From Clostridium sp. CAG:433 (GTDB taxonomy: Bacteria > Bacillota_I > Bacilli_A > RF39 > UBA660): a stretch of 64,000 bases of DNA. A model generated the notes under the pieces. That model made no database searches. It had not been told where the DNA came from and saw only the letters and a list, made by a program, of their open reading frames with translations. Made by a program: the position numbers and the translations under genes. Location: assembly GCA_000433675.1 (NCBI GenBank), contig FR893558.1, positions 17,547 to 81,546 on the forward strand, in the 5' to 3' direction. Positions 4,531-50,257 of this stretch are shown here, piece by piece (the first letter of the stretch is position 1; every line of letters begins with the position of its first letter).

Positions 4531-5559
4531 GTGAGTCATAATATTGATTTAAATGTTATGAATATGAGGACAGATTTAGCTATTGATGGAGTAAATAATG
4601 AAGAACTTGAAAAGTTAAAAGAAGAAAAAGAAAATGGAATAAAGGTATTTACAGTAGATGTAACAAAAGAAAATCAAGATAAGTTTAATAAAAAATGTGG
4701 CAAATATATAACAATAGCGTTTGATGATGTGACCGATTATAATAATTCTATAAATGTTGAAAAAGTTTTTACGAGTGAACTTAAAAAAATGATTGAAAGC
4801 AATAATATACCATCTAGTGCATCATGTATAATAATTGGTCTTGGAAATGAAAAAAGTACACCAGACTCACTAGGACCACTTTCTATTAATGATATAATAG
4901 TCACAAATCATTTGTTTTCTCTTGGAATAAATGTAGAAGATGGCTTTAGAGTAGTATCTGCATTTAATCCTGGTGTTATGGGACAAACAGGAATAGAAAC
5001 TAGTGATATTATATATGCACTTATAAAAGAAATAAAACCAGATTTTGTAATTGTGGTTGATGCACTAAAAGCATCCAATGTTGATAGAGTAAATAAAACA
5101 ATACAAATAACAGATGCTGGAATAAATCCTGGATCAGGAATTGGAAATACTAGAAAAGAAATTAGTAAGGATGTACTTAATATACCAGTATTTGCGGTTG
5201 GTGTTCCAACTGTAGTAGATACTGTAACAATAGTAAATGATACACTTAAATATTTAGAAAATTATATATGTTATATGAAAAATAATATGGATAATCCAAA
5301 AGAAAAATTAAAAATAGTAAGAACTAATATAGATAAAAATAATCTTGAAATTGATGAAAAAAATAATCTTTTTGGTTTAATTGGAACTTTAAAAGAAGAA
5401 GACTTTAAATCATTATTAATAGAGGCTATAAATCCAGTTGGATATAATATGATAGTTACACCAAAAGAAATAGATTTTGTTATTGATAGGCTCGCAAATG
5501 TAATATCAACTGGAATAAATAATGCACTTCATGACAAGGTTACACACTTAAAAGTGTAA
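4531..5559 (+). CDS. gpr: germination protease (spore SASP endopeptidase)
   Basis: GTG start with AGAGGTGA RBS; RTDLAIDG, CIIIGLGNEKSTPDSLGP, GVMGQTGIETSDII, INPGSGIGN blocks match Gpr. Confidence 0.85.
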   Translation: MSHNIDLNVMNMRTDLAIDGVNNEELEKLKEEKENGIKVFTVDVTKENQDKFNKKCGKYITIAFDDVTDYNNSINVEKVFTSELKKMIESNNIPSSASCIIIGLGNEKSTPDSLGPLSINDIIVTNHLFSLGINVEDGFRVVSAFNPGVMGQTGIETSDIIYALIKEIKPDFVIVVDALKASNVDRVNKTIQITDAGINPGSGIGNTRKEISKDVLNIPVFAVGVPTVVDTVTIVNDTLKYLENYICYMKNNMDNPKEKLKIVRTNIDKNNLEIDEKNNLFGLIGTLKEEDFKSLLIEAINPVGYNMIVTPKEIDFVIDRLANVISTGINNALHDKVTHLKV

Positions 5560-5632
5560 ACTTTTTAAATTATAATATATATCGACACTTTATTTAAAAT
5601 ACAGGGATTATTCTATTTATAGGGTGATTTCT

Positions 5633-6643
5633 ATGAAAAGGGCTAAATTAAAAAATCATAGTAAAAAAAAGAAGATTTTTCCTAAAAGAATATTTAAATT
5701 ATTAATTTTTATATTCGCAATATATCTGTCTTATTCATTTACATTTAATTTTTTATCAAAAAAAGACATAGATATAAAAGATAAGAAATATGTTGATTAT
5801 TTACTTAGTGCAGCATATAAAAAGGATAATAAAAAAATATTATTAGAGGAAAGTTTAAAAATGGTATCAAATATTGATTTAAAAGATCCTACGACACTTT
5901 TATCTAGTAATATAAAATCATCAAAAAGTGAAACAAAAAATAAATATACAAAAGATGCTGAAGCAAAAGAAGATGATTATAATGCATCTGTATATGAAAA
6001 GATAACATCATATGTTGAAAATCCATTAAAAGATAAAGAAAACCCTATTATATATTTATATAATACACATCAACTTGAAACATATTCTAATAGTGGATTT
6101 GAAAATTCTAATGTAAATCCAAATGTTCTTATGGCATCTTATTTACTTGCGGAAAGTCTAAATAAAAGTAATATAAATACTATTGTAGAAGATACTAATA
6201 TAAATGAATTTAATAGAGTATCCGGAATAAGTGATAATGATTTTTATAATACTACTAGAATATTTTTAAAAGAAAAAATAAATAAATATCAAAGTATTAA
6301 ATATTATATAGATATGCATAGAGATTCAGTTGATAAAAATATTTCAACATGTACAATAAATAATAAAAATTATGCAAGAGTTTTATTTGTATTAGGTACA
6401 AAAAATGAAAACTATTTAGAAAATAAGAAAAATATGACAGAATTAGATACATTAATGGATAAATATTATCCAGGATTATCTAGAGGTATTTATGAAAGAA
6501 AAGCGTATTATAACCAAGATTTAAATAAAAATATAATGTTAATTGAACTTGGTGCGAAAGAAAATACTATTGAAGAGGTAACAAATACAATTGATGCATT
6601 AACATTTATATTTAATAAATATATTAATGGTGATGATAAATGA
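5633..6643 (+). CDS. spoIIP: stage II sporulation protein P
   Basis: ATG 5633 preferred over GTG 5624 (RBS AGGGTGA 5 nt upstream). N-terminal TM; IYLYNTHQLETYS and C-terminal amidase-like region typical of SpoIIP; gpr-spoIIP adjacency as in Bacillus. Confidence 0.75.
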   Translation: MKRAKLKNHSKKKKIFPKRIFKLLIFIFAIYLSYSFTFNFLSKKDIDIKDKKYVDYLLSAAYKKDNKKILLEESLKMVSNIDLKDPTTLLSSNIKSSKSETKNKYTKDAEAKEDDYNASVYEKITSYVENPLKDKENPIIYLYNTHQLETYSNSGFENSNVNPNVLMASYLLAESLNKSNINTIVEDTNINEFNRVSGISDNDFYNTTRIFLKEKINKYQSIKYYIDMHRDSVDKNISTCTINNKNYARVLFVLGTKNENYLENKKNMTELDTLMDKYYPGLSRGIYERKAYYNQDLNKNIMLIELGAKENTIEEVTNTIDALTFIFNKYINGDDK

Positions 6644-12372: not shown

Positions 12373-14382
12373 ATGAAATATAAAAATGGAGAAGAATTTT
12401 TAAATAAATTATATAGAGAAATGCATACAAGTAGTGAGGTTGTGTATAAAGCAAGTTCCAGTGATACACCAGAAGAAAAAATAAGAAAATATCTATCAAG
12501 ACTAGAACATACACATGAACTTTCTAAAAAGAATGAACATAGTTTAGAATTATTAAAAAAATTTTACTATGATAAGTATTTGATTAAAGAACTACCTGAA
12601 TCATATGTGAATCATCAAAAGGAAATAGCAAGAAAAGAAGGCTATGGAAATGTTTATGTTTCTGATGAAATGAAACAAGGAATGTTAGATCAAGTTAGGA
12701 AAGATCAAAAGTCTACACTTGACTTATGGATTGATTACTTTATAAGTGAAGACTCTATGTATCCAACATGGTTTAAAGTTTATGCGTTTAAGGGAATGTT
12801 AGGTTTAAGTGCATTTAATAAAGAAAAACAAGAGTTTGGTAAAAGAACAGATAAAACAACATTCCCATTTATTGATTTAAATATGGAAGCTTTATCAAAA
12901 GTATATGATATATTAAAAGACGAAATTGGTGAAAATAACCTAACTGATGAAGAACTAGAAATATTATCAAAAGGTGAAAGTTTTAAGAAACTATATACTT
13001 ACTATTTTACAAATCAAGATTCAAAAATAATAAATAATGATGAAACAGAAGGAATATGGGTTAAATATGATATGGGGTCTGATTATATGCCGTTATGGGA
13101 ATCACTACAAGGTAAAAATACAGGATGGTGTACCGCAGGAAAAGAAACCGCAAAAATTCAACTTGAGGGTGGGGACTTTTATGTATATTATACGAAAGAT
13201 GAAACTGATGAATATAAAAATCCAAGAATAGCAATAAGAATGAATGGAAAAAATGAAATTGCTGAAGTAAGAGGAACTAGTAAAAATCAAAATCTGGAAT
13301 CAAATATGGAACCAATACTTGATAAGAAATTAGAAGAATTCCATAACAAAGATAAATATAAAAAGAAAGTTCACGATATGAAACTTTTAACATTAATAGA
13401 AGAAAAGACAAAAAATAATCTAGAATTATCATTAGATGATTTAAAATTTTTATATGAGGTAGATTCAGAAATAGAAGGGTTTGGATATGAAAAAGATCCT
13501 AGAATTGAAGAAATTATTTCTAAAAGAGATAAAAGAAAAGATATTGCGAGGGTTTATAGTGTTAAAGAAGACGAAGTTGCGTTATCTCACAAAGAGTGGA
13601 AAGAAAATAAAGAAAAGGTAAAAATCTGTTGTGGGAATTTATATTTAAATGATTTAAAAAGTGCAAAAGGTTTAAAATTGCCAAACATAGTAATAGGTGG
13701 GGTATCTTTAGATAATTTAACGAGTTCTGAAGGTTTAGTATTACCAGATATAATAAAAGGGAATTTATATTTAGAAAATTTAACGAGTGCTAAAGGCTTA
13801 AAATTGCCGAGCACAATAATTGGGTATTTGAATTTAGAAAAGTTAATAAGCGCTGAAGGTTTAAAGTTACCAAACACAATAAATGGACGTTTATATTTAG
13901 ATAGCTTAACAAGTGCTGAAGGCTTAATATTGCCAGATACAATGAATGGATATTTATGTTTAAAGAGTTTAACGAGTGCTAAAGGCTTAAAATTACCAAA
14001 AACAATAACTGGACATTTAAATTTGAGTGGTTTAAAAAATGCTAAAGACTTAAAATTACCAGATACAATAAATGTGGATTTAAATTTAAGTGGATTGATA
14101 AGCGCTAAAGACTTAAAATTGCCAAACGTAATAAATGGAGATTTATATTTACATAGCTTAACAAGTGCCAAAGACTTAAAATTACCAAGAACAATAACTG
14201 GAGATTTATATTTAAAAGGTTTAACAAGCATCGAAGGTTTAGTATTACCAATTTCATTATTTGGTAGAGTTTATTCGAAAATTGATATTCCTGAAACATG
14301 TTTTATTCCTGATGAAGAATATTATAAATATATAAACGAAGATAAAAATAATGAAAATGATGAAAGAATAAGAAAAATATAA
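12373..14382 (+). CDS. large protein: N-terminal Cys-containing domain + ~14 tandem 20-residue leucine-rich-like repeats
   Basis: Repeat consensus G.LYL..LTSAKGLKLP.TI iterated from ~aa 415 to 630; N-domain motif NTGWCTAGKETAKIQLEGGDFYVYYTKDETDEYKNPRIAIRMNG. Confidence 0.6.
   Translation: MKYKNGEEFLNKLYREMHTSSEVVYKASSSDTPEEKIRKYLSRLEHTHELSKKNEHSLELLKKFYYDKYLIKELPESYVNHQKEIARKEGYGNVYVSDEMKQGMLDQVRKDQKSTLDLWIDYFISEDSMYPTWFKVYAFKGMLGLSAFNKEKQEFGKRTDKTTFPFIDLNMEALSKVYDILKDEIGENNLTDEELEILSKGESFKKLYTYYFTNQDSKIINNDETEGIWVKYDMGSDYMPLWESLQGKNTGWCTAGKETAKIQLEGGDFYVYYTKDETDEYKNPRIAIRMNGKNEIAEVRGTSKNQNLESNMEPILDKKLEEFHNKDKYKKKVHDMKLLTLIEEKTKNNLELSLDDLKFLYEVDSEIEGFGYEKDPRIEEIISKRDKRKDIARVYSVKEDEVALSHKEWKENKEKVKICCGNLYLNDLKSAKGLKLPNIVIGGVSLDNLTSSEGLVLPDIIKGNLYLENLTSAKGLKLPSTIIGYLNLEKLISAEGLKLPNTINGRLYLDSLTSAEGLILPDTMNGYLCLKSLTSAKGLKLPKTITGHLNLSGLKNAKDLKLPDTINVDLNLSGLISAKDLKLPNVINGDLYLHSLTSAKDLKLPRTITGDLYLKGLTSIEGLVLPISLFGRVYSKIDIPETCFIPDEEYYKYINEDKNNENDERIRKI
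13620..14260 (+). repeat. tandem 60-nt coding repeats (20-aa LRR-like units)
   Basis: Direct periodicity of 60 nt, in frame, inside CDS 12373..14382. Confidence 0.7.
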
Positions 14383-15444: not shown

Positions 15445-15486
15445 TTAGCACTCATCTATTGACATTGCTAAAATAAGTGCTATAAT
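15445..15486 (+). promoter_or_regulatory. hrcA sigmaA promoter (TTGACA-17-TATAAT) overlapped by an atypical CIRCE (HrcA operator)
   Basis: TTAGCACTC (15445-53) -9 nt- CATTGCTAA (7/9 to GAGTGCTAA), and a second right-half-like AAGTGCTATAA overlapping the -10. Confidence 0.5.
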
Positions 15487-15517
15487 TAGATTGTACACTT
15501 GGATTAGAGGTGAATAT

Positions 15518-16507
15518 ATGCTTACAGAAAGACAAAGTGCTATATTAAAAATTATAGTTGAAGAGTATATAAAAGTACCAAAGCCAGTTGGTTCAAAATC
15601 TATTTGTGATTCATTAAATGTATCTAGTGCGACAGTTAGAAATGAAATGGCTAACTTAGAAGATTTAGGATACTTAGAAAAAACACATGTATCATCAGGT
15701 AGAGTTCCATCTGAGAAAGGTTATAGATATTACGTTGATAATTTAATGAAGCCAAAAGAAATGAGTGGTGAAGATGTATTAAAACTTCAAACAATATTTC
15801 AAAATAATTCATTAGTATTAAGCGATGCAATAATAAAAAGCCTAGAGATAATATCTGAAATGACTAATTATACAGCAGTTATATTAAAGGATAATGCTTT
15901 GGAAAGTAAACTTAAAAAAGTTGAAGCAATTCCAATTGATGAAAATAATGTAACAGCTATCCTTGTAACAGATAAAGGACATGTTGAAAATAAAATAATT
16001 AATATAACAGGTTCTAATCTAGAGGAAGTAAATAAAACTGTTGAACTTATTAATAAACTTATTGTTGGTACTCCAATTGATGAAGTTACATCTAAACTAG
16101 AATTTGAAATTAAACCAATTATTAATCAATATGTAAAACATCATGAAATACTTTATAATGCGTTCTATAATGCATTTAATAATTTTAAAGATAGTGCAGA
16201 TATGACTATGAGGGGTAAAAATAATTTACTTGAACTTGATGAATTTTCATCTGATGCTAGAAAAATTAAAGATTTAGTTAATAAGTTTGATAATGAAAAT
16301 ATTGTTTCTAAGATTAAAGAAGATGACTCTGGTATAAATGTGTACATAGGTAATGAAAACAACATAGATGATGATTTGACAGTAATAAAAACAAAATATA
16401 ATGTAAATGGTAGAGAAGGAACACTTGCGATTCTAGGACCAAAAAGAATGGAATATGATAGAGTTGTAAGTTTACTTGAATACTTAAAAGAAGAGATTGA
16501 AAAGTAA
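15518..16507 (+). CDS. hrcA: heat-inducible transcription repressor HrcA
   Basis: MLTERQSAILKIIVEEYIK..PVGSKS N-terminal wHTH; ATG 15518 behind AGAGGTGA RBS; upstream CIRCE; precedes grpE-dnaK. Confidence 0.85.
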   Translation: MLTERQSAILKIIVEEYIKVPKPVGSKSICDSLNVSSATVRNEMANLEDLGYLEKTHVSSGRVPSEKGYRYYVDNLMKPKEMSGEDVLKLQTIFQNNSLVLSDAIIKSLEIISEMTNYTAVILKDNALESKLKKVEAIPIDENNVTAILVTDKGHVENKIINITGSNLEEVNKTVELINKLIVGTPIDEVTSKLEFEIKPIINQYVKHHEILYNAFYNAFNNFKDSADMTMRGKNNLLELDEFSSDARKIKDLVNKFDNENIVSKIKEDDSGINVYIGNENNIDDDLTVIKTKYNVNGREGTLAILGPKRMEYDRVVSLLEYLKEEIEK

Positions 16508-18952: not shown

Positions 18953-20761
18953 ATGACTGAAATAATAAAAGATAGAAGTATGATTGATGATAAATATAAA
19001 TGGGATTTAACTAAGGTATATAAAACAAATGATGATTTTGAAAGTGACTGCAAGAAAGTAAAAAATTTAATTACAGAATATAGAAAAAAGTATGAAAATC
19101 ATACTATGGATAACGCTAAAATATTTTATGATTCTATAGTTGATGAAATAGAAATAGAAAGATTACTTGAAAAATTATATAGTTATTCAAATCTAAAAAA
19201 AGATGAAGATGTAGCAAATACAGAAAATCAAGAACTTAGAAGTAAGGTTGTTAATTTATATGATTATGCATCTAAGAACATGTTTTTTACAAGTACTGAA
19301 ATGTTAAAAAAAGATTATTCTTTAATAGAAGATTTTTATAAAGAGGAACCAAGACTTTTAGAACATGAAAATAATTTGAAAGATTCATTTAGATATAAAA
19401 AATATATGTTGTCTGATGAAGAAGAAAAATTATTATCAAATATATCAAAAGCATTTGGTAATGATGAAGAAACATATGGTTATTTAGTTGATTCTGATAT
19501 GACTTTTGGTGAAATTAAAGATGAAAATGGTAATATGGTAGAACTTACTGATACAAATTATAGTGTTTATATAGAGTCTAAAAATAGAAGTGTTAGAAAA
19601 GATGCTTTTGAATCATTATATAATCATTATAAACAATTTAAAAATACAATTACATCATTATTTAATGGTTCTATTAATGAAAGTGTTAGTATGGCAAAAT
19701 TAAGAGGATATCCTTCAGCATTTTTGGCATCACTTTATAAAGATGATATGAAAGAAAGTGTTTATAATACTTTAGTAGATACAATTCATAATAATTTAGA
19801 TGTATATCAAAAATATTATGAATTAAAAAAAGAAGTTCTTAATCTAGATGAATTACATTTATATGATATATATACTCCTATGATAGATGAAGGAGATAAA
19901 AAGTATTCATTTGAAGAAGCTAAAGAAATGGTTTTAAATGCACTTAGTGTTTTAGGTGATGATTACGTTAATAACTTTAAAAAAATCTTTGATGAAAAAT
20001 GGGTAGATGTTTATCCAAATAAAAATAAAAGAGGAGGAGCATACTCTGGTGGATGTTATGATACATATCCATATATTCTTTTAAACTATCAAGGATCACT
20101 TAATGATGTATCAACACTTGCACATGAAGGTGGACATTCTATGCATACTTACTATACTGTAAATAATCAGCCTATTCAGTATGGAAGTTATCCAATATTT
20201 GTGGCTGAAGTAGCAAGTACTGTAAATGAAATATTACTTTCAAAATATTTACTTAAAACAAGTAAAAATAAAGAAGAAAAACTAATTGTACTTAATAAAT
20301 TACTTGAATTATTTAAAGGTACAATATATCGTCAAGTTATGTTTTCTGAATTTGAAAAATACGCATATGATTTAATAGAAAATGATGATGTAATTACATC
20401 TGATAAATTATGTGATAAATACTATGAACTAAATAAATTATATTTTGGTGAAAATGTAGTAGTAGATGATTTAATTAGATATGAATGGGAAAAAGTTCCT
20501 CATTTCTATTATGATTTCTATGTATATAAATATGCGACAGGAATAAGTGCTGCATGTAAAATAGCAGAAGGTATTTTAAATAATGTAGAGGGAGCACTAG
20601 ATAATTATTTAAAAATGCTTAAAAATGGATGCAGAGAAAATCCTTTAAATACATTAAAAATTGCAGGAGTAGATATGGAAGATAAAGAAGTATACGAAAG
20701 TGCGATTAGAATGTTTGATGAAGCAATAGAAGAATTTAGAACTTTATCAAATGAAAAATAG
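18953..20761 (+). CDS. pepF: oligoendopeptidase F (M3B)
   Basis: HEGGHSMH zinc motif; 602 aa. Confidence 0.85.
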   Translation: MTEIIKDRSMIDDKYKWDLTKVYKTNDDFESDCKKVKNLITEYRKKYENHTMDNAKIFYDSIVDEIEIERLLEKLYSYSNLKKDEDVANTENQELRSKVVNLYDYASKNMFFTSTEMLKKDYSLIEDFYKEEPRLLEHENNLKDSFRYKKYMLSDEEEKLLSNISKAFGNDEETYGYLVDSDMTFGEIKDENGNMVELTDTNYSVYIESKNRSVRKDAFESLYNHYKQFKNTITSLFNGSINESVSMAKLRGYPSAFLASLYKDDMKESVYNTLVDTIHNNLDVYQKYYELKKEVLNLDELHLYDIYTPMIDEGDKKYSFEEAKEMVLNALSVLGDDYVNNFKKIFDEKWVDVYPNKNKRGGAYSGGCYDTYPYILLNYQGSLNDVSTLAHEGGHSMHTYYTVNNQPIQYGSYPIFVAEVASTVNEILLSKYLLKTSKNKEEKLIVLNKLLELFKGTIYRQVMFSEFEKYAYDLIENDDVITSDKLCDKYYELNKLYFGENVVVDDLIRYEWEKVPHFYYDFYVYKYATGISAACKIAEGILNNVEGALDNYLKMLKNGCRENPLNTLKIAGVDMEDKEVYESAIRMFDEAIEEFRTLSNEK

Positions 20762-20773
20762 AGGTGAAGTAAA

Positions 20774-21928
20774 TTGGCAAAAAGAGATTATTATGAGGTT
20801 TTAGGAGTATCTAAAACTGCAACTGATAAAGAAATAAAAAGTGCTTTTAGACGTTTAGCAAAAGAATACCATCCTGATTTAAATAAAGCACCAGATGCTG
20901 CTGAAAAATTTAAAGAAGTACAAGAAGCATATGAGGTATTATCTGATGAAAATAAAAGAAAGATGTATGATCAATATGGTCATTCTGCTTTTGATCAAAA
21001 TGGTAATGCTGGTTACGGAGGCTTTGGTGGTGGATTTAACGGAGGCTTCTCATCTTCATCATTTGGTTTTGATGATATAGATTTATCTGATATATTATCA
21101 GGTGTATTTGGCCAAGGTTTTGGCTTTGGTGGTGGAAGCAGAAAAAGTTCTAATAGAGCGCAAAAAGGTAAAGATTTATTATTTAACATGAAATTATCTT
21201 TTATGGAAGCAGTTTATGGATGTAAAAAAGATTTTACACTTGATGTATATGAAACTTGTGATAGCTGTAATGGTAAAGGTGGACATGGAGAAAAGAAATG
21301 TTCAAGATGTCATGGCTCTGGTACAGTAACAGAAGAACAAAGAACAATGTTTGGATCATTTGTTTCAAAAACAACATGTCCTGAGTGTTCAGGAAGAGGT
21401 AAATCATTTGATACTGTATGTTCTGATTGTAAAGGAACAGGTAAAGTAAAAAAGAGAAAAACAATTACAGTCACTGTCCCAGCAGGTATTGATGAAGGCC
21501 AACAAATTCGTATAAAAGAAAAAGGTGAAGCTGGAATTAACGGTGGACCTAATGGTGACGTTTATGTTGAATTTCATATTGAAGACCATCAAATATTTAA
21601 AAGAGATGGTAATGATGTTTATATGGAATTACCTATAAATATAGTTGAAGCAACTTTAGGATGTAAGAAAGATGTTCCATTAATGAAGGAAAGTATAGTA
21701 TTAAATATACCAGAAGGAACTCAAAACGGAGATAAACATAGAATTAAAGGAAAAGGTGTTCCATACATTAATTCATCAAAAGTTGGAGACATGTATATAG
21801 TTATAAAAGTTGTTATACCAACTAAACTTGACAAAAAACAAAGAGAATTATTTAATGAATTATCTAAAACTAATTTAGATGACAATAATGATTTCATAAC
21901 AAAATTTAAAAAATTCTTTAGAAGATAA
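20774..21928 (+). CDS. dnaJ: chaperone DnaJ
   Basis: TTG start; [12 protein letters not shown]-domain with HPD; Gly/Phe region; four CxxCxGxG zinc-finger repeats. Confidence 0.9.
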
Positions 21929-21931
21929 TTA

Positions 21932-21958
21932 AAAGTCCTTTAAAAAAGGACTTTTTTG
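21932..21958 (+). terminator. rho-independent terminator after dnaJ
   Basis: AAAGTCCTT-taaaa-AAGGACTTT then TTTTG. Confidence 0.6.
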
Positions 21959-22043
21959 TTGTAAACTATACGTTATTTTAAGAAAATCACTTGATAATAA
22001 ATGATTATAATTGTAAAATTATAAGTAGTAATAGGAGAGTAAT

Positions 22044-23210
22044 ATGAAGAAAAAAGGATTTACATTAATAGAATTATTAGCAGTAATAGTAATACTTGGA
22101 ATAATAACTGTAATAGCAGTACCAAAAGTATTAGATATTATAAATAAATCAAAGGAGAGTGCGTCAAGTAGTAGTATTAAACTTGTAAAAGATGCGATTA
22201 AAACACAAGTAGCTGCAAGTGAATTAACAAATTCAGCATTTACAAAAGAAACTGATGGATGTTATTTATTCAACTTTGATGATCAAACAAGTGGTAACGC
22301 AAAAGCACTAGAAATAAAAAATAAAGATAAAGTATCAGGAAGTATTAAATATTGTAATAATACTTTTACTGATGATACTTTAAAATTTGATGGTAATAGC
22401 ATTAGTAAAGGTGATACAAAAAAGGCAATATGTAAAAGAGCTACAGTACTTCATACAGAAGAATGTACACAAACAGATTCACAATATTATTGTTCCGGTG
22501 CAGGATACACAAATAGTGGTTCAAAAGGAACAAGTACAATCACATATGGTAATCTAGGAACAAATGGAATATTAACTTCGGGAGACGCATTTGATTGTGA
22601 TGTAAATGGTGATGGAATATATAATCCAGAAACAGAAAGATTTTATTATGTAACAGATATGGACGATATAACAGCAGTATTAATATACTATAATAACGTT
22701 AGCGCAGGTAATCCAAGTAATACAAAAAACTATGCATATGATAGTTCAGGAGAAAATTGGCACGGACCAAGAACTGCGATAGAACAATTACCAACAACAA
22801 GTCAATGGAGTAATGTAAGATTAACAAATAATGTAAGACCAATAACAACAAATACAGGGGGGAACACAACAGCAGGAGGGACATTACCAAGTAATTTTAG
22901 TTATGCAGGATATGCAGCAAGATTACTAACAATACAAGAAGTAAAAAAAGGAACAGGATTAAGTAATATACCAACATTGCAAGTAGGAGAATTAGATAAC
23001 TTTACTTATTTACTAGAAAACACAAAATTTGCAAATAATAGTAATGTTGCATGGGCATGGTGGTTAGAAAATTCTCTTTCCGATAATTCTGTGAATGCTT
23101 GGTTTACGTATGGTCATGGTCGCTATGTCAATTATAACACTGTTTCGGATGCTGTTGGCTATGCAGTTCGTCCAGCAATAGAAGTATCAAAAAGTAATAT
23201 AGAATATTAA
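22044..23210 (+). CDS. prepilin-type N-terminal cleavage/methylation domain protein with 360-aa Cys-rich globular domain
   Basis: MKKKGFTLIELLAVIVILGIITVIAVPKV class-III signal peptide; the rest is Thr/Ser/Asn-rich with multiple Cys. Confidence 0.6.
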   Translation: MKKKGFTLIELLAVIVILGIITVIAVPKVLDIINKSKESASSSSIKLVKDAIKTQVAASELTNSAFTKETDGCYLFNFDDQTSGNAKALEIKNKDKVSGSIKYCNNTFTDDTLKFDGNSISKGDTKKAICKRATVLHTEECTQTDSQYYCSGAGYTNSGSKGTSTITYGNLGTNGILTSGDAFDCDVNGDGIYNPETERFYYVTDMDDITAVLIYYNNVSAGNPSNTKNYAYDSSGENWHGPRTAIEQLPTTSQWSNVRLTNNVRPITTNTGGNTTAGGTLPSNFSYAGYAARLLTIQEVKKGTGLSNIPTLQVGELDNFTYLLENTKFANNSNVAWAWWLENSLSDNSVNAWFTYGHGRYVNYNTVSDAVGYAVRPAIEVSKSNIEY

Positions 23211-23244
23211 AAAGGTAAAACTTAAATTAAAGTTCTACCTTTTC
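23210..23244. terminator. bidirectional hairpin between convergent genes
   Basis: AAAAGGTAAAACT-loop-AGTTCTACCTTTT. Confidence 0.45.
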
Positions 23245-24177
23245 TTTTTCTAAAAATTCTTTAAATTCTTCTTTAAATTTTACTAATTCTTTTTGTACTA
23301 CATCAGGGTATACACTATTACAGTTTTTTATTGCTGCATATATATGTTTAAATGTAACTATATCTGAGTTTTCGAATCTAGCATATGTGAAGCATTTTGA
23401 TAAAAGTGCTAATGAAACATCTGGGTATCTTGAATTATTTTCATAAACTCTTTTATATTCACTTGTCATATCAACTATAAATTTACATACATTTTCTAAA
23501 ACCCAATTAGTATATGGCCATCTAACACCAGTTGATTTTTCAATTTTCTTTGTTGTACCCATAAGAATCTTTACAGTTGTTTCTTGATCTGGTTCAGCAA
23601 CTTCTATTCTTTCAAAACGTCTTAAGAATGCTTTATCTTTAAGTAAGTTTTCTTCAAATTCTTGAGTAGTAGTCGCACCAATTATTTTTATTTCACCTCT
23701 ATCAAGTCCAGGTTTTAACATGTTTAGAAAGTCAACATCACCATTTTTTGATGCAGTAACAAGTGTATGTATTTCATCAATAAATAGAATTATATCTTTT
23801 TTACCCATTATTTCATTAATTAAAAGTTGAAGTTTAGAATCTTCAACACCATCACTAGTGTATGTTCCAAGCAAAGAAGAAGTATTTATTTTATAAATCT
23901 TTGAATTAAGAAGTGCATTAGGTACTTCTTTTCTTTGAATTAAATAATTTAATCCTTCAACAATAGCAGTTTTACCTATACCTGGTTTACCTGTTAAAAC
24001 AGCAGACTTTTCAGGACTAAGTAATACAAGTATTAATTTTTTTATTTCTTCTTCTCTAGCAATAGCGGGATTAGTAACATATTCTTTTTTACTTAGATCT
24101 TCAGCATAATTACTAAGCATACTAAATCCATTTGAAAATGGGCTAGGATTATATTCCATAAAATCATTATTATCCAT
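23227..24177 (-). CDS. stand-alone ClpA/ClpB-type AAA+ ATPase, first nucleotide-binding domain (D1) only
   Basis: Walker A GKPGIGKTAIVEGL, Walker B ILFIDEIH, sensor-1 IIGATT, Arg-finger RRFER: collinear with Clp/Hsp100 NBD1. No N-domain, middle domain or NBD2; 316 aa. Confidence 0.6.
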   Translation of the reverse strand: MDNNDFMEYNPSPFSNGFSMLSNYAEDLSKKEYVTNPAIAREEEIKKLILVLLSPEKSAVLTGKPGIGKTAIVEGLNYLIQRKEVPNALLNSKIYKINTSSLLGTYTSDGVEDSKLQLLINEIMGKKDIILFIDEIHTLVTASKNGDVDFLNMLKPGLDRGEIKIIGATTTQEFEENLLKDKAFLRRFERIEVAEPDQETTVKILMGTTKKIEKSTGVRWPYTNWVLENVCKFIVDMTSEYKRVYENNSRYPDVSLALLSKCFTYARFENSDIVTFKHIYAAIKNCNSVYPDVVQKELVKFKEEFKEFLEKEKVEL

Positions 24178-24314
24178 ATATCATTCTCCTTAACAATATT
24201 AGTATACCAAAATATGACATTTTTTACTAGTAAAATTTTGTAAAGAAACATAAATGTTCGTAAAATTCATTGTATATTATTTTTTTCTAATTTATAATGA
24301 AAGTGGTGATAAAT

Positions 24315-25022
24315 ATGCAGAGATATTTTGCAGTAGATAAAGATTTAAATATTAGTGATAAAGATAAACATCATATAATAAATGTAATGAGGATGAAAAT
24401 AAATGACAGAATAGAAATTGTATATGATGAAAAAGTTTATTTGTGTGAAATAAAAGATATATCAAAAAAAGATGTAAGTTATAGTGTAAAAGATATTATT
24501 GATGTAAATAATGAACTTCCTGTAAAGGTAACAATAGCAGTTTCTTTAGTAAATGAAAAGAAACTTGATTTTATTTTACAAAAGTGTACAGAACTTGGTA
24601 TATATGATTTTATACTTGTAAGCTCTGATAGAAGTAAAATAAAAATTGATGGAAAAGAAAATAAGAAAATAGAGAGATGGAACACAATTACAAAGGAAGC
24701 AGCAGAACAATCTCATAGAAATATTAAGCCTATTATTAAAGGTATTATGTCTATAGATGAAGTATCAAAATTGAATTATGATTTAAAACTTACATGCTCA
24801 ACAAAAGAAAATGAAAAAACTATTAAAAATGTGTTACAAAATTCGACAAACTGTGATAGAATTATCATAGTGGTTGGTCCTGAAGGGGGCCTTACTATTT
24901 CTGAAGAAGAAAAATTAGAAAAAAATGGGTTTGTTCCAGTTACTTTAGGTAATTTAATTTTAAGAACTGAAACAGTTCCTATGTATATTATGAGTTTAAT
25001 AAATTATGAGGTGGCATTATGA
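24315..25022 (+). CDS. rsmE: 16S rRNA (uracil1498-N3)-methyltransferase
   Basis: MQRYF start typical of RsmE; SPOUT C-terminal GPEGG motif; ATG 24315 chosen (RBS AAGTGGTGA). Confidence 0.8.
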   Translation: MQRYFAVDKDLNISDKDKHHIINVMRMKINDRIEIVYDEKVYLCEIKDISKKDVSYSVKDIIDVNNELPVKVTIAVSLVNEKKLDFILQKCTELGIYDFILVSSDRSKIKIDGKENKKIERWNTITKEAAEQSHRNIKPIIKGIMSIDEVSKLNYDLKLTCSTKENEKTIKNVLQNSTNCDRIIIVVGPEGGLTISEEEKLEKNGFVPVTLGNLILRTETVPMYIMSLINYEVAL

Positions 25023-25822
25023 AAAATATGGGTTCAATATTATTTAAATTTTCAGATATGGATAAAAGTAGTCAAATATTATTATTTTTAATTGTGCTTG
25101 TATTTTTAATGCTTATAAGTATTACAGTTATTAATCTTATAACTAAAAAGAAAAATAACAAATATGATATGGAAAACAGAAATATTAAAAGATATTCAGA
25201 CTTAATAAAAGAAGAAGATAATGTGGAATCATCTATTACGCCAGCAAAAGTGGTTGAAGCAAAAAAAGAAATGCCAAAATTAATAGTTAAAGAAGAAAAG
25301 AAAAAAACTCCAGAAATTATAGAAAAATTAGATGAAGAAGAAATAGAATCTTTAGAAATAGAAGAACCAAAAGAAGAAGTAATTGTTACAAAACCAAGTA
25401 GTATTGAAGAAATATCAAAATTAATTGAAAATACACTAGAACAAGAACCTATTGATTTAACTAATTTTGAAGAAGAACAAGAAAAAGATGCGATTATAAG
25501 TTATGATGAACTTGTTAAAAGAGCGGGTGCTAAAAAAATAATTTATAGAGCGGAAACAAAAGCAGAAGAAAAGAAAGAGCCTGTTAAGGTTATTAAAACA
25601 GAAAAAAAACAGGAACCATTTATTAATAAAAAAGGAGAATATGCTGGAACATTTAAGGCATCTCAAATAGTTTCACCAATATATGGTGTTAAGAAAAATG
25701 ACGATATTAATGAAAATTTTATTGATTTAGAAGAGTTTAAATTAGATGAAACTAAAAGTGAAGAAGAAAGAGAAAATGAGTTTTTAGGAAACTTAAAAAC
25801 ATTTAGAAATAATCTTGACTAA
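25019..25822 (+). CDS. hypothetical membrane-anchored Lys/Glu-rich protein
   Basis: ATGA overlap with rsmE; TM ILLFLIVLVFLMLISITVINLI then a low-complexity KE-rich region. Confidence 0.4.
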   Translation: MKNMGSILFKFSDMDKSSQILLFLIVLVFLMLISITVINLITKKKNNKYDMENRNIKRYSDLIKEEDNVESSITPAKVVEAKKEMPKLIVKEEKKKTPEIIEKLDEEEIESLEIEEPKEEVIVTKPSSIEEISKLIENTLEQEPIDLTNFEEEQEKDAIISYDELVKRAGAKKIIYRAETKAEEKKEPVKVIKTEKKQEPFINKKGEYAGTFKASQIVSPIYGVKKNDDINENFIDLEEFKLDETKSEEERENEFLGNLKTFRNNLD

Positions 25823-49483: not shown

Positions 49484-50257
49484 ATGTACAAACTAAAAGA
49501 AGATTTAAGTATAGAAAATATGATATATGAAATAAGAGGTAGGCAAGTAATGCTAGATTGTGATTTAGCAAAATTATATAATGTTGAAACTAAAAGAATA
49601 AATGAGGCGGTAAAAAATAATCCTGACAAATTTCCGGAAAGATTTTATTTTAGAATAAATGAAAATGAATTTTTTTCTTTGAAGTCGAAAATTTCGACTT
49701 CAAAAGGTGGTTCTAGAAAAGGACATAATGTATTCACAGAACAAGGGATTGCAATGCTATCTACAATATTAAAATCCAAAGTAGCAGTAGAAACAAGTAT
49801 AAGAATAATGGATGCATTTGTAAAAATGAGAAAATATATTTCAGCAAATTTAATAGAACAAGACAATATGAAAAATATGCTTATTAAACATGATAACGAA
49901 ATAAAATTACTTCAAGAATCATTTTCAAAATTAGAGGAAAAAGAAAAAATAAATCATATATTTTATGATGGACAAATATATGATGCATATTCACTATTAA
50001 TTGATATATTTAAAGGTGCAAAAGAAGAAATAATTATAATAGATAATTATGCAGACAAAAGTATTTTAAATATGATAACGAACCTAAATGTAAAAGTAAC
50101 TATTGTTACTAGAAAATTTAATTTATTAAAAGATATAGATATAAAAAAATATAATAGGCAATACCATAATTTGAAAGTAATATACAGTGATAAGTTTCAC
50201 GATAGATTCATAATACTTGATAAAAAAGTATTGTATCATTCAGGAGCGAGCTATTAA
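49484..50257 (+). CDS. ORF6N/KilA-N-like DNA-binding domain protein
   Basis: MIYEIRGRQVMLDCDLAKLYNVETKRINEAVKNN...FPERFYF...GHNVFTEQGIAMLSTILKS matches the ORF6N domain pattern. Confidence 0.55.
   Translation: MYKLKEDLSIENMIYEIRGRQVMLDCDLAKLYNVETKRINEAVKNNPDKFPERFYFRINENEFFSLKSKISTSKGGSRKGHNVFTEQGIAMLSTILKSKVAVETSIRIMDAFVKMRKYISANLIEQDNMKNMLIKHDNEIKLLQESFSKLEEKEKINHIFYDGQIYDAYSLLIDIFKGAKEEIIIIDNYADKSILNMITNLNVKVTIVTRKFNLLKDIDIKKYNRQYHNLKVIYSDKFHDRFIILDKKVLYHSGASY

Follow-up and report, generated by a model that had tools for sequence, protein, structure and literature searches.

A stand-alone first AAA+ module of the Hsp100 type beside the dnaK operon of 'Clostridium sp. CAG:433'

What can the first AAA+ module of an Hsp100 protein be doing when it is encoded on its own? 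The question is raised by the DNA downstream of dnaJ in a stretch of 64,000 nucleotides from contig FR893558.1 of 'Clostridium sp. CAG:433', the whole of which is called the window here. The window is low-GC DNA (about 25% GC), and its source is a lineage of uncultured, host-associated Bacilli whose records are named 'Clostridium sp. CAG:433', 'uncultured Tenericutes UMGS855' and 'Bacilli bacterium'. For B. subtilis, Homuth and co-workers reportedly described in 1997 a heptacistronic dnaK operon with the order hrcA-grpE-dnaK-dnaJ-yqeT/prmA-yqeU/rsmE-yqeV/mtaB. The order in the window is hrcA-grpE-dnaK-pepF-dnaJ, a pilin-like gene (+), an AAA+ gene (-), rsmE, orf267, mtaB, orf165 and recD2. Compared with the B. 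subtilis order, the place of prmA after dnaJ is thus taken by two convergent genes, one for the pilin-like protein (22044-23210, + strand) and one for an AAA+ ATPase (23227-24177, - strand). Both open reading frames (ORFs) lie where a preliminary description of this DNA had placed them; each ends with a TAA stop, and the two stops are 16 bp apart. A regular-expression scan of the 64-kb window for motif I of S-adenosylmethionine (SAM) enzymes, which is a weak test, detected no PrmA-like methyltransferase.

A first Hsp100 module encoded on its own

The gene at 23227-24177 has an ATG start and a TAA stop and encodes a protein of 316 amino acids. By its Walker A and B motifs, sensor-1, arginine finger and helical lid, this protein is a member of the AAA+ superfamily. 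It had been described as a complete Hsp100 nucleotide-binding domain 1 (NBD1, or D1) lacking the N-domain, the M-domain and the second AAA+ module (D2), and this description is borne out by matches to models and PDB entries that are confined to D1, by the motifs and by an AlphaFold2 model. The family models of ClpA, ClpB, ClpV, ClpG and ClpK were matched through their first nucleotide-binding domain only. The match to the ClpA model covers positions 165-413 of 734 and scores 179 bits, where the family cut-off is 993; Pfam AAA was matched at 2.3e-13. In the PDB, 44 distinct Hsp100 sequences were matched, again in D1 only. T. thermophilus ClpB ranks first (residues 150-356, E 5.5e-39), and profile-based PDB matches reach E 1e-53. 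ClpB, Hsp104, ClpC1, ClpC and ClpA gave near-equal profile scores of 176-184 bits, and none of these Hsp100 subfamilies is clearly the closest. Identity to the D1 of two-ring proteins is about 30-36%. No match to the ClpX or HslU models was obtained at E<=0.01.

The protein opens with the motif L..Y..DL(S/T), where D1 begins in ClpB, and only one helix follows V..(I/V)YP, the last element of the D1 lid in ClpA. Its D1-type signatures NPAIAR, GKPGIGKT, LRRFE and SRYPD align with those of ClpB and ClpA D1 (DP.IGR, GxPGVGKT, RRF and R.LPD, respectively). The Walker A motif GKPGIGKT (23968-23991; this and all following features of the gene are on the - strand) is invariant in the family that we define below as Group A. 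Its second position is occupied by Lys, where Glu or Asp is usual in the other Hsp100-type D1 sequences compared. The Walker B motif ILFIDEIH (23767-23790) has D134 and E135 invariant among relatives, as is sensor-1 IGATT (23668-23682). The arginine-finger pair R186 R187 (23617-23622) is also invariant and aligns with the ERRF motif of ClpB. As judged from the ClpB alignment and the family table, the pore-1 loop has been remodelled: GTYTSDGVEDS (23836-23868) replaces the canonical aromatic-hydrophobic-glycine loop (Ar-phi-Gly, e.g. GAKYRGEFEER).

The lid, i.e. the small helical subdomain of D1, and the terminal helix are encoded at 23230-23586 and include the conserved motif TSEYKRVYE..SRYPD; helices are predicted at residues 198-311 with a predicted local distance difference test score (pLDDT) of about 90. 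The lid is contiguous as in ClpA, with a profile alignment that runs uninterrupted to ClpA residue 433, and the alignments to ClpB and ClpC end before their M-domains (at about residue 360 in ClpB). No M-domain insertion was found in the lid, and there is no long coiled coil in the AlphaFold2 model. No Clp_N domain was matched, and only a disordered N-terminus of 17 residues precedes D1. This acidic-aromatic tail, MDNNDFMEYNPSPFSNG, is encoded at 24127-24177 and has a pLDDT below 50 for residues 1-11. The ClpP-docking [LIV]G[FL] loop of ClpA, ClpC and ClpE is located in D2; since D2 is absent, the loop is absent as well. The AlphaFold2 model, built with a 40-sequence alignment, has a pLDDT of 84.5 and a predicted template-modelling score (pTM) of 0.79. 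In Foldseek it superposes on D1 of ClpC1, ClpA, ClpC, ClpB and Hsp104 over 270-300 columns with query-normalised template-modelling (TM) scores of 0.65-0.71, and the modelled lid helices superpose on Hsp100 D1 lids.

A gene of this kind might be suspected to derive from a full-length clpB or clpC by loss of D2 and to be a 3'-truncated remnant or a pseudogene. Its matches are limited to D1 of two-ring proteins, relatives are annotated as 'ClpA' by the Joint Genome Institute (JGI), and a survey regards shorter Clp-like sequences as 'possibly fragmentary genes' (PMC10149685). However, when two full-length Hsp100 proteins were compared with the 64-kb window by tblastn, D1 was found at the ATPase gene only (E<0.01), with no D2 sequence downstream or elsewhere and no other Hsp100. 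Residual D2 sequence downstream of 23227 on the - strand, which the preliminary description had named as the mark of a truncated gene, is thus not detected, and just 16 bp lie between the TAA of the ATPase gene and the end of the convergent gene. The length is 314-317 amino acids in the 120 close relatives listed and is conserved across hundreds of metagenome contigs; in the contig collection, 214 indexed blocks contain the exact ATPase sequence. The ratio of nonsynonymous to synonymous substitution (dN/dS) against four orthologues is 0.09-0.20, which indicates that the gene is under purifying selection. The family-specific invariant motifs and the terminal tips described below also point to an old and coherent family. 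On the tblastn result, the conserved length and the dN/dS values, we rejected the remnant explanation, to which we give practically no chance.

The wider family and its possible function

We defined Group A as proteins with at least 48% identity to the window ATPase and a D1 core of about 300 amino acids with the motifs GKPGIGKT, TSEYKR..SRYPD and (I/V)YPD; the window ATPase has this core. Among 1.84 billion representative proteins, 1430 clusters were found at E<1e-30, and they span Group A, a second group of single-D1 proteins (Group B, see below) and two-ring proteins. A profile search gave at least 8000 candidates at E<=1e-20, with lengths of 307-526 amino acids among the 120 matches listed. 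The lengths in Group A range from 307 to 1022 amino acids, and the differences lie wholly in tails of low complexity, in which N, E, D and S abound. Walker A and B, sensor-1 and both arginine fingers are kept across the group. Group A is a large, unnamed, vertically inherited family of host-associated low-GC Bacilli. NCBIfam, Pfam and PADLOC contain no family model specific for it, and its proteins carry the public labels 'AAA family ATPase' or, wrongly, 'ClpA'. Our literature searches returned no description of an NBD1-only Hsp100, in agreement with the earlier remark that no characterised stand-alone Clp D1 module was known; on the biology of CAG-433 they likewise gave nothing of relevance. 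A defence origin and a phage origin were considered and rejected: PADLOC gave weak generic AAA matches only (IetA, TRIP13), and PHROGs gave just a generic 'ATP-dependent protease' match to D1.

The pore-1 loop divides these proteins. In most of Group A it reads GT[ML]P[ST]GE[ST]K and is 3 residues shorter, and in the immediate clade of the window protein it reads G[TNK]Y[TNE].[DE]G. Group B, the larger set, consists of uncharacterised single-D1 proteins of about 500 amino acids (e.g. P0152, P0155 and the 528-residue protein of locus L019), whose core is 35-47% identical to the window ATPase. Their pore-1 loop is of the canonical aromatic type, G.[YF][VR]G.FEE, and they have a structured N-terminal extension of about 200 amino acids. 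An assignment of this extension as a Clp_N domain was rejected, as it is without Pfam support. The Group B member at L019 (7335-8921) has weak ankyrin matches, and a ParB-like ORF was recognised by eye upstream of it.

The tails of Group A carry a further common feature. Of 156 full-core members of Group A, 113 extend at the C-terminus by a tail of 30 residues or more (median 86), and 97 of these 113 (86%) have a tip within the last 12 residues. The tip is acidic-aromatic in 54 proteins ([DEN]DD[FY]phi[FY][DE], e.g. DDDFFEE, EDYLYEE and DKDYFFD) and acidic-hydrophobic in 43 ([DE][DE]IE[IL]L). As controls, such tips were found in 2 of 48 window ORFs and in 2 of 121 Group B or other relatives. 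An (I/L)DL(N/D)LD element often lies ahead of the tip. Group A members with a long N-terminal tail have a similar motif at the extreme N-terminus ('NRFIFSDDFYE'), so that the tip is found at whichever terminus carries the tail.

Our preferred reading, which we hold with moderate confidence, is that the window ATPase, a single first-ring Hsp100 module, would be a ring-forming dedicated remodeller or clamp and not a ClpB-type disaggregase or a ClpP-coupled unfoldase. The protein would assemble as a homo-oligomeric single ring and hydrolyse ATP. Ring assembly is suggested by the arginine fingers, because they are invariant and because, in related AAA+ proteins, such fingers act in trans where subunits meet. 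The ring would remodel a specific client or partner, or clamp and release it under ATP gating, and the tethered tip would act in docking or in autoinhibition or autoregulation. Because the M-domain, D2 and the ClpP loop are absent, the protein is not expected to work with DnaK as ClpB does, or with ClpP as ClpA and ClpC do. Judged from its sequence, it is probably a single-ring remodeller of a specific client. A bolder proposal is that Group A represents a new Hsp100-derived class, which might partly replace two-ring ClpB or ClpC in small-genome gut Bacilli. In this class an NBD1 single ring would use its tip to dock on a dedicated partner or to gate itself against it; the partner could be, for example, a peptidase, a sporulation factor or a protein that binds nucleic acids. 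We offer this proposal tentatively and think it possible, if rather unlikely.

Several observations weigh against a dedicated remodeller or clamp with a docking tip. The pore-loop Tyr, shifted 2 residues upstream from its place in the canonical loop and with acidic surroundings, is conserved in 11 of 11 close orthologues, and with it the window clade may thread substrates. The window protein has neither a C-terminal tail nor a tip, and its whole clade lacks the C-terminal tail. The N-termini in this clade are short, acidic-aromatic and variable in length (MDNNDFMEY in the window protein; MNNDQYFDDFFDNDEN and MSDKDFSDFEPNN in orthologues). The resemblance of the window N-terminus to the Group A tip is no more than suggestive, with the N-terminal motif in 16 of 41 proteins as compared to a background of 10-12%. 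In addition, a conserved operon partner is absent in the distant loci L021-L024 and in L016 and L018, where glmS lies downstream in two only.

The lack of a conserved operon partner among the distant loci would also fit an ATPase that serves as a regulatory subunit or a decoy, co-assembling with, capping or titrating a full-length Hsp100 (ClpC, ClpE or ClpB) encoded elsewhere. Residues of the D1 interface are retained, the arginine fingers among them, and by analogy the long and short isoforms of E. coli ClpB form mixed oligomers. However, an identity of only about 30-36% to the D1 of two-ring proteins makes precise packing less likely, Group A has its own tails and tips that are lacking in two-ring proteins, and no full-length Hsp100 is encoded within the 64 kb. 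We consider mixed rings unlikely.

The tips themselves bring to mind a different partner. The ATPase could serve a peptidase, HslV/ClpQ-like or of another kind, as activator or unfoldase and would dock on it by the terminal hydrophobic tip. Many tips end with Hb-[YF]-X (Hb, a hydrophobic residue) or phi-E-phi-L at a free C-terminus (DYLYE, DFFFE, DDIEIL). The C-terminal end of HslU activates HslV, with Tyr/Phe as key residues (PMC6429459, PMC4106860), and HbYX (hydrophobic-tyrosine-any residue) motifs have been catalogued (PMC11475706). Against this, the motif is N-terminal and without a free carboxylate in the window clade and in the members with long N-terminal tails, no peptidase gene is a conserved neighbour, and tips with two or three trailing acidic residues misfit a strict HbYX. 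A peptidase activator is thus improbable in our view, and a dedicated remodeller or clamp remains the reading that we prefer.

Surroundings of the ATPase gene and its pilin-like neighbour

The sequence signals around the AAA gene suggest an independent transcription unit. An extended -10 element TGgTATACT (24209-24201) and a ribosome-binding site (RBS) AAGGAGA (24191-24185), both assigned by consensus match only, precede the gene on the - strand (24185-24209). A hairpin with a 15-pair stem at 23209-23244 is common to both convergent genes and resembles a bidirectional terminator. No controlling inverted repeat of chaperone expression (CIRCE) was found near the AAA gene; the only CIRCE of the window lies at 15445-15471, upstream of hrcA (15491-16507). 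A search for the CtsR box gave no match at <=2 mismatches. After dnaJ (20774-21928), a terminator-like hairpin at 21931-21955 (+) closes the dnaK operon.

The preliminary description had held that the adjacency to the chaperone operon makes a chaperone-accessory role conceivable. In relatives down to about 73% identity, the AAA gene stays beside rsmE or orf267 and faces dnaJ. Group A genes at 54-60% identity adjoin ftsY/ylxM, tex, glmS, radical-SAM or other genes. Because the distant members lie elsewhere, we regard the adjacency to the dnaK operon as lineage-specific synteny and not as evidence of function. It may still be argued that the ATPase assists the DnaK system as an accessory protein and either shares the regulation of the hrcA-grpE-dnaK-dnaJ operon or acts on it, for Hsp100 proteins are chaperones and the position beside this operon is conserved in the immediate clade (L007-L017). 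But the AAA gene is on the opposite strand, the terminator of dnaJ and then a variable slot of 0.1-4.7 kb separate the two, CIRCE is found upstream of hrcA only, and there is no CtsR box. ClpB couples to DnaK through its M-domain, which the ATPase does not have. With members below about 60% identity in unrelated contexts, beside ftsY, tex, glmS and others and not dnaK, the suggested role is not supported, and we rate a DnaK accessory as very improbable.

The slot between dnaJ and the AAA gene (21929-23226 in the window) varies among relatives from about 20 bp to 4.6 kb, measured from ORF to ORF. By Pfam, it contains a HerA-like helicase in L007, whose AAA protein is 95% identical, an HD-domain protein in L008, a PP-loop protein and a heavy-metal P-type ATPase in L010, and SpoIIGA with a sigma factor in L017 (9017-10487). 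In L009, a 380-residue ORF was assigned as an HD-domain protein by sequence resemblance only. The slot of L013 contains nothing, and unknown ORFs fill it in some other relatives. Treating the pilin-like gene and the ATPase as one feature, as had been done before, is therefore not justified: at 93-95% identity of the AAA protein, relatives have other genes or nothing in the slot and lack the pilin-like gene. The two genes are adjacent and convergent and share the terminator hairpin, as could be expected of one functional module in which the ATPase serves, for example, a pilus or a secretion filament. However, the paralogous pilin-like genes in the greA-tig interval and near murG stand alone, with no such ATPase, and the ATPases of type IV filaments are established to be of the PilB/GspE family, not Hsp100. 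We see next to no likelihood in a common module; functionally, the pilin-like gene is cargo of a variable slot and unrelated to the ATPase.

The pilin-like gene (22044-23210, +) is BN654_00879 of 'Clostridium sp. CAG:433' and encodes 388 amino acids. A promoter-like site, TTGATA-17-TAAAAT, followed by an RBS GGAGAG, lies at 21991-22019 (+) and is a consensus match only. The class III (prepilin) signal and the hydrophobic alpha1-N, MKKKG followed by FTLIELLAVIVILGIITVIAV, are encoded at 22044-22121 (+); the leader is short and basic, cleavage is expected between G and F, and Glu stands at +5. The type-IV-pilin-like N-terminus noticed earlier (MKKKG/FTLIELL) is confirmed by Pfam N_methyl (2.5e-7) and TIGR02532 (7.6e-8), both above cut-offs. 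The 'Cys-rich head' attributed to the protein was overstated, as it has 6 Cys (1.5%) compared with a median of 0.7% in window ORFs; its cysteines are nevertheless conserved, all 6 being invariant or nearly so among 27 relatives. AlphaFold2 modelled only the alpha1 helix (residues 8-57) and a small sheet (within residues 8-120), with a pLDDT of 40.8 overall. A paralogue with 74% identity, BN654_00737, stands alone between greA and tig (L025-L027), and further paralogues of 380-480 amino acids occur near murG (L042, L048, L049 and L085), singly between housekeeping genes. The gene is thus a member of a family that has multiple, scattered copies in 'Clostridium sp. CAG:433'. By eye, no prepilin peptidase or pilus assembly genes could be recognised among the 64-kb ORFs or beside the paralogues.

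Near its end, the pilin-like gene has a hypervariable, DUF6273-like block of 31 codons (23073-23165, +) between invariant WWLEN and VRPAIEV; some relatives match PF19789. The block is rich in Asn, Ser, Tyr, Asp and Gly, and it varies between alleles or paralogues mainly at positions 1-2 of NNY codons, with differences at third positions as well. DUF6273 has been reported as a target domain of diversity-generating retroelements (DGRs) (PMC10743442, PMC11792537). The C-terminal location of the block, its WW..N and VRP flanks and the NNY pattern are like those of DGR targets with C-type-lectin-fold variable regions. Unlike with DGR targets, neither a template repeat (blastn) nor a reverse transcriptase (motif scan) was found in the window or in 27 loci, and the alleles appear fixed. 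An identical block was present in six independent samples. A pattern scan of metagenomes gave 20 or more different alleles, all of them within pilin-like ORFs, and resampled alleles recurred unchanged. Its 58 matches were alleles in pilin-like ORFs or unrelated sequences, with no A-rich template and no reverse transcriptase nearby; a scan of viral_contigs gave 0 matches. With fixed alleles and no template or reverse transcriptase in the scanned sequences, active DGR targeting is not supported, and past or trans-acting DGR activity on the block is possible. Orphan modular pilins with a DGR-like block and no detected retroelement may be of interest for host-microbe surface variation.

Other genes of the window deserve mention. 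Upstream of the hrcA region, gpr, spoIIP, lepA and hemW were identified by eye, and the window order mirrors what we take to be the counterpart region of B. subtilis (gpr-spoIIP-...-lepA-hemN-hrcA-grpE-dnaK-dnaJ-prmA-rsmE-mtaB). The genes gpr and spoIIP (4531-6643) are sporulation genes in a lineage labelled 'Tenericutes' by some records; the SpoIIGA and sigma factor of L017 are noted above. The gene for oligoendopeptidase F (pepF, Peptidase_M3, 18953-20761) sits between dnaK and dnaJ within the heat-shock operon, as it does in relatives. Downstream of the AAA gene, orf267 (25019-25822) overlaps the stop of rsmE (24297-25022) by 4 nucleotides, and its position between rsmE and mtaB is conserved in relatives. 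For the orf267 protein, which gave no Pfam match, a membrane helix is predicted at the N-terminus; it also has a long region rich in E and K, and its C-terminus is conserved. Two large repeat proteins are encoded at 30310-32208 and 12373-14382. One has BspA-type leucine-rich repeats (Pfam LRR_5), and the other has about 12 tandem repeats of the type L(T/K)SAKGLKLP and no Pfam match; a long antisense ORF on the latter gene is probably an artefact of the repeats. Finally, an ORF6N-domain protein (49484-50257, Pfam 4e-31) is encoded amid otherwise housekeeping genes. The ORF6N domain is typical of phage anti-repressor-like genes.

Comparison with known systems

For the pilin-like protein, the closest analogues described are the modular pilins of Streptococcus sanguinis. 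In PilB and PilC of this organism, a large C-terminal module, presumed to bind ligands, is grafted on a pilin (PMC8179133, PMC9934059). The protein of the window likewise combines a prepilin signal, a pilin module and a large extra module at the C-terminus. It differs in being encoded by an orphan gene of a scattered multi-copy family without pilus machinery in the 64 kb, and its grafted module is DUF6273-like with a hypervariable block, unlike the vWA and lectin modules of S. sanguinis.

The ATPase resembles D1 of ClpA, ClpB/Hsp104, ClpC/ClpC1, ClpE and ClpL in its whole fold, its motifs, the double arginine finger, the DP.IGR box and a lid motif similar to R.LPD. Unlike the class-I Hsp100 proteins, which have two tandem AAA+ modules, it has D1 only, without an N-domain, an M-domain or a ClpP loop; the remodelled pore-1 loop, the Lys in Walker A and, in most Group A members, a disordered tail with a tip are further differences. 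With Group B it shares the D1-only core. Unlike Group B, Group A is without the extension of about 200 amino acids and without the canonical pore loop, and its tips are near-absent in Group B and other relatives (2 of 121). Pipelines that name Group A proteins 'ClpA', or that dismiss short Clp-like sequences as fragments, are misleading. The group marks an uncharacterised component of proteostasis or remodelling in abundant uncultured bacteria of the human and animal gut.

To our knowledge, the single-module Clp ATPases described so far (ClpX, HslU and Skd3) are all of the NBD2 type, and D1 has been studied only within two-ring machines or as engineered fragments. The ATPase is like ClpX, HslU (ClpY) and Skd3 in having one AAA+ module per subunit, and those proteins act as hexameric rings; it is unlike them in that they are, as far as is known, of the NBD2 type with aromatic pore loops kept, whereas Group A is of the NBD1 type. 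Human CLPB/Skd3 combines ankyrin repeats with one NBD (PMC7343390, PMC9934407). Several AAA+ ATPases dock on partners by flexibly tethered end tips that are hydrophobic or aromatic: HslU engages its partner HslV by a terminal tail (PMC6429459, PMC4106860), and proteasomal ATPases dock by HbYX motifs (PMC11475706). The parallel of the Group A tip with the C-terminal tails of HslU and with HbYX is drawn as an analogy and not as a homology. A widespread natural D1-only family under purifying selection would be a ready system for finding out what D1 does alone, and the altered pore loop and the conserved tip increase the value of Group A for this purpose. Beside the two-ring machines and the NBD2-type single rings, Group A is, on the evidence of its sequences, an uncharacterised and presumably single-ring NBD1-type branch of the Hsp100 family.

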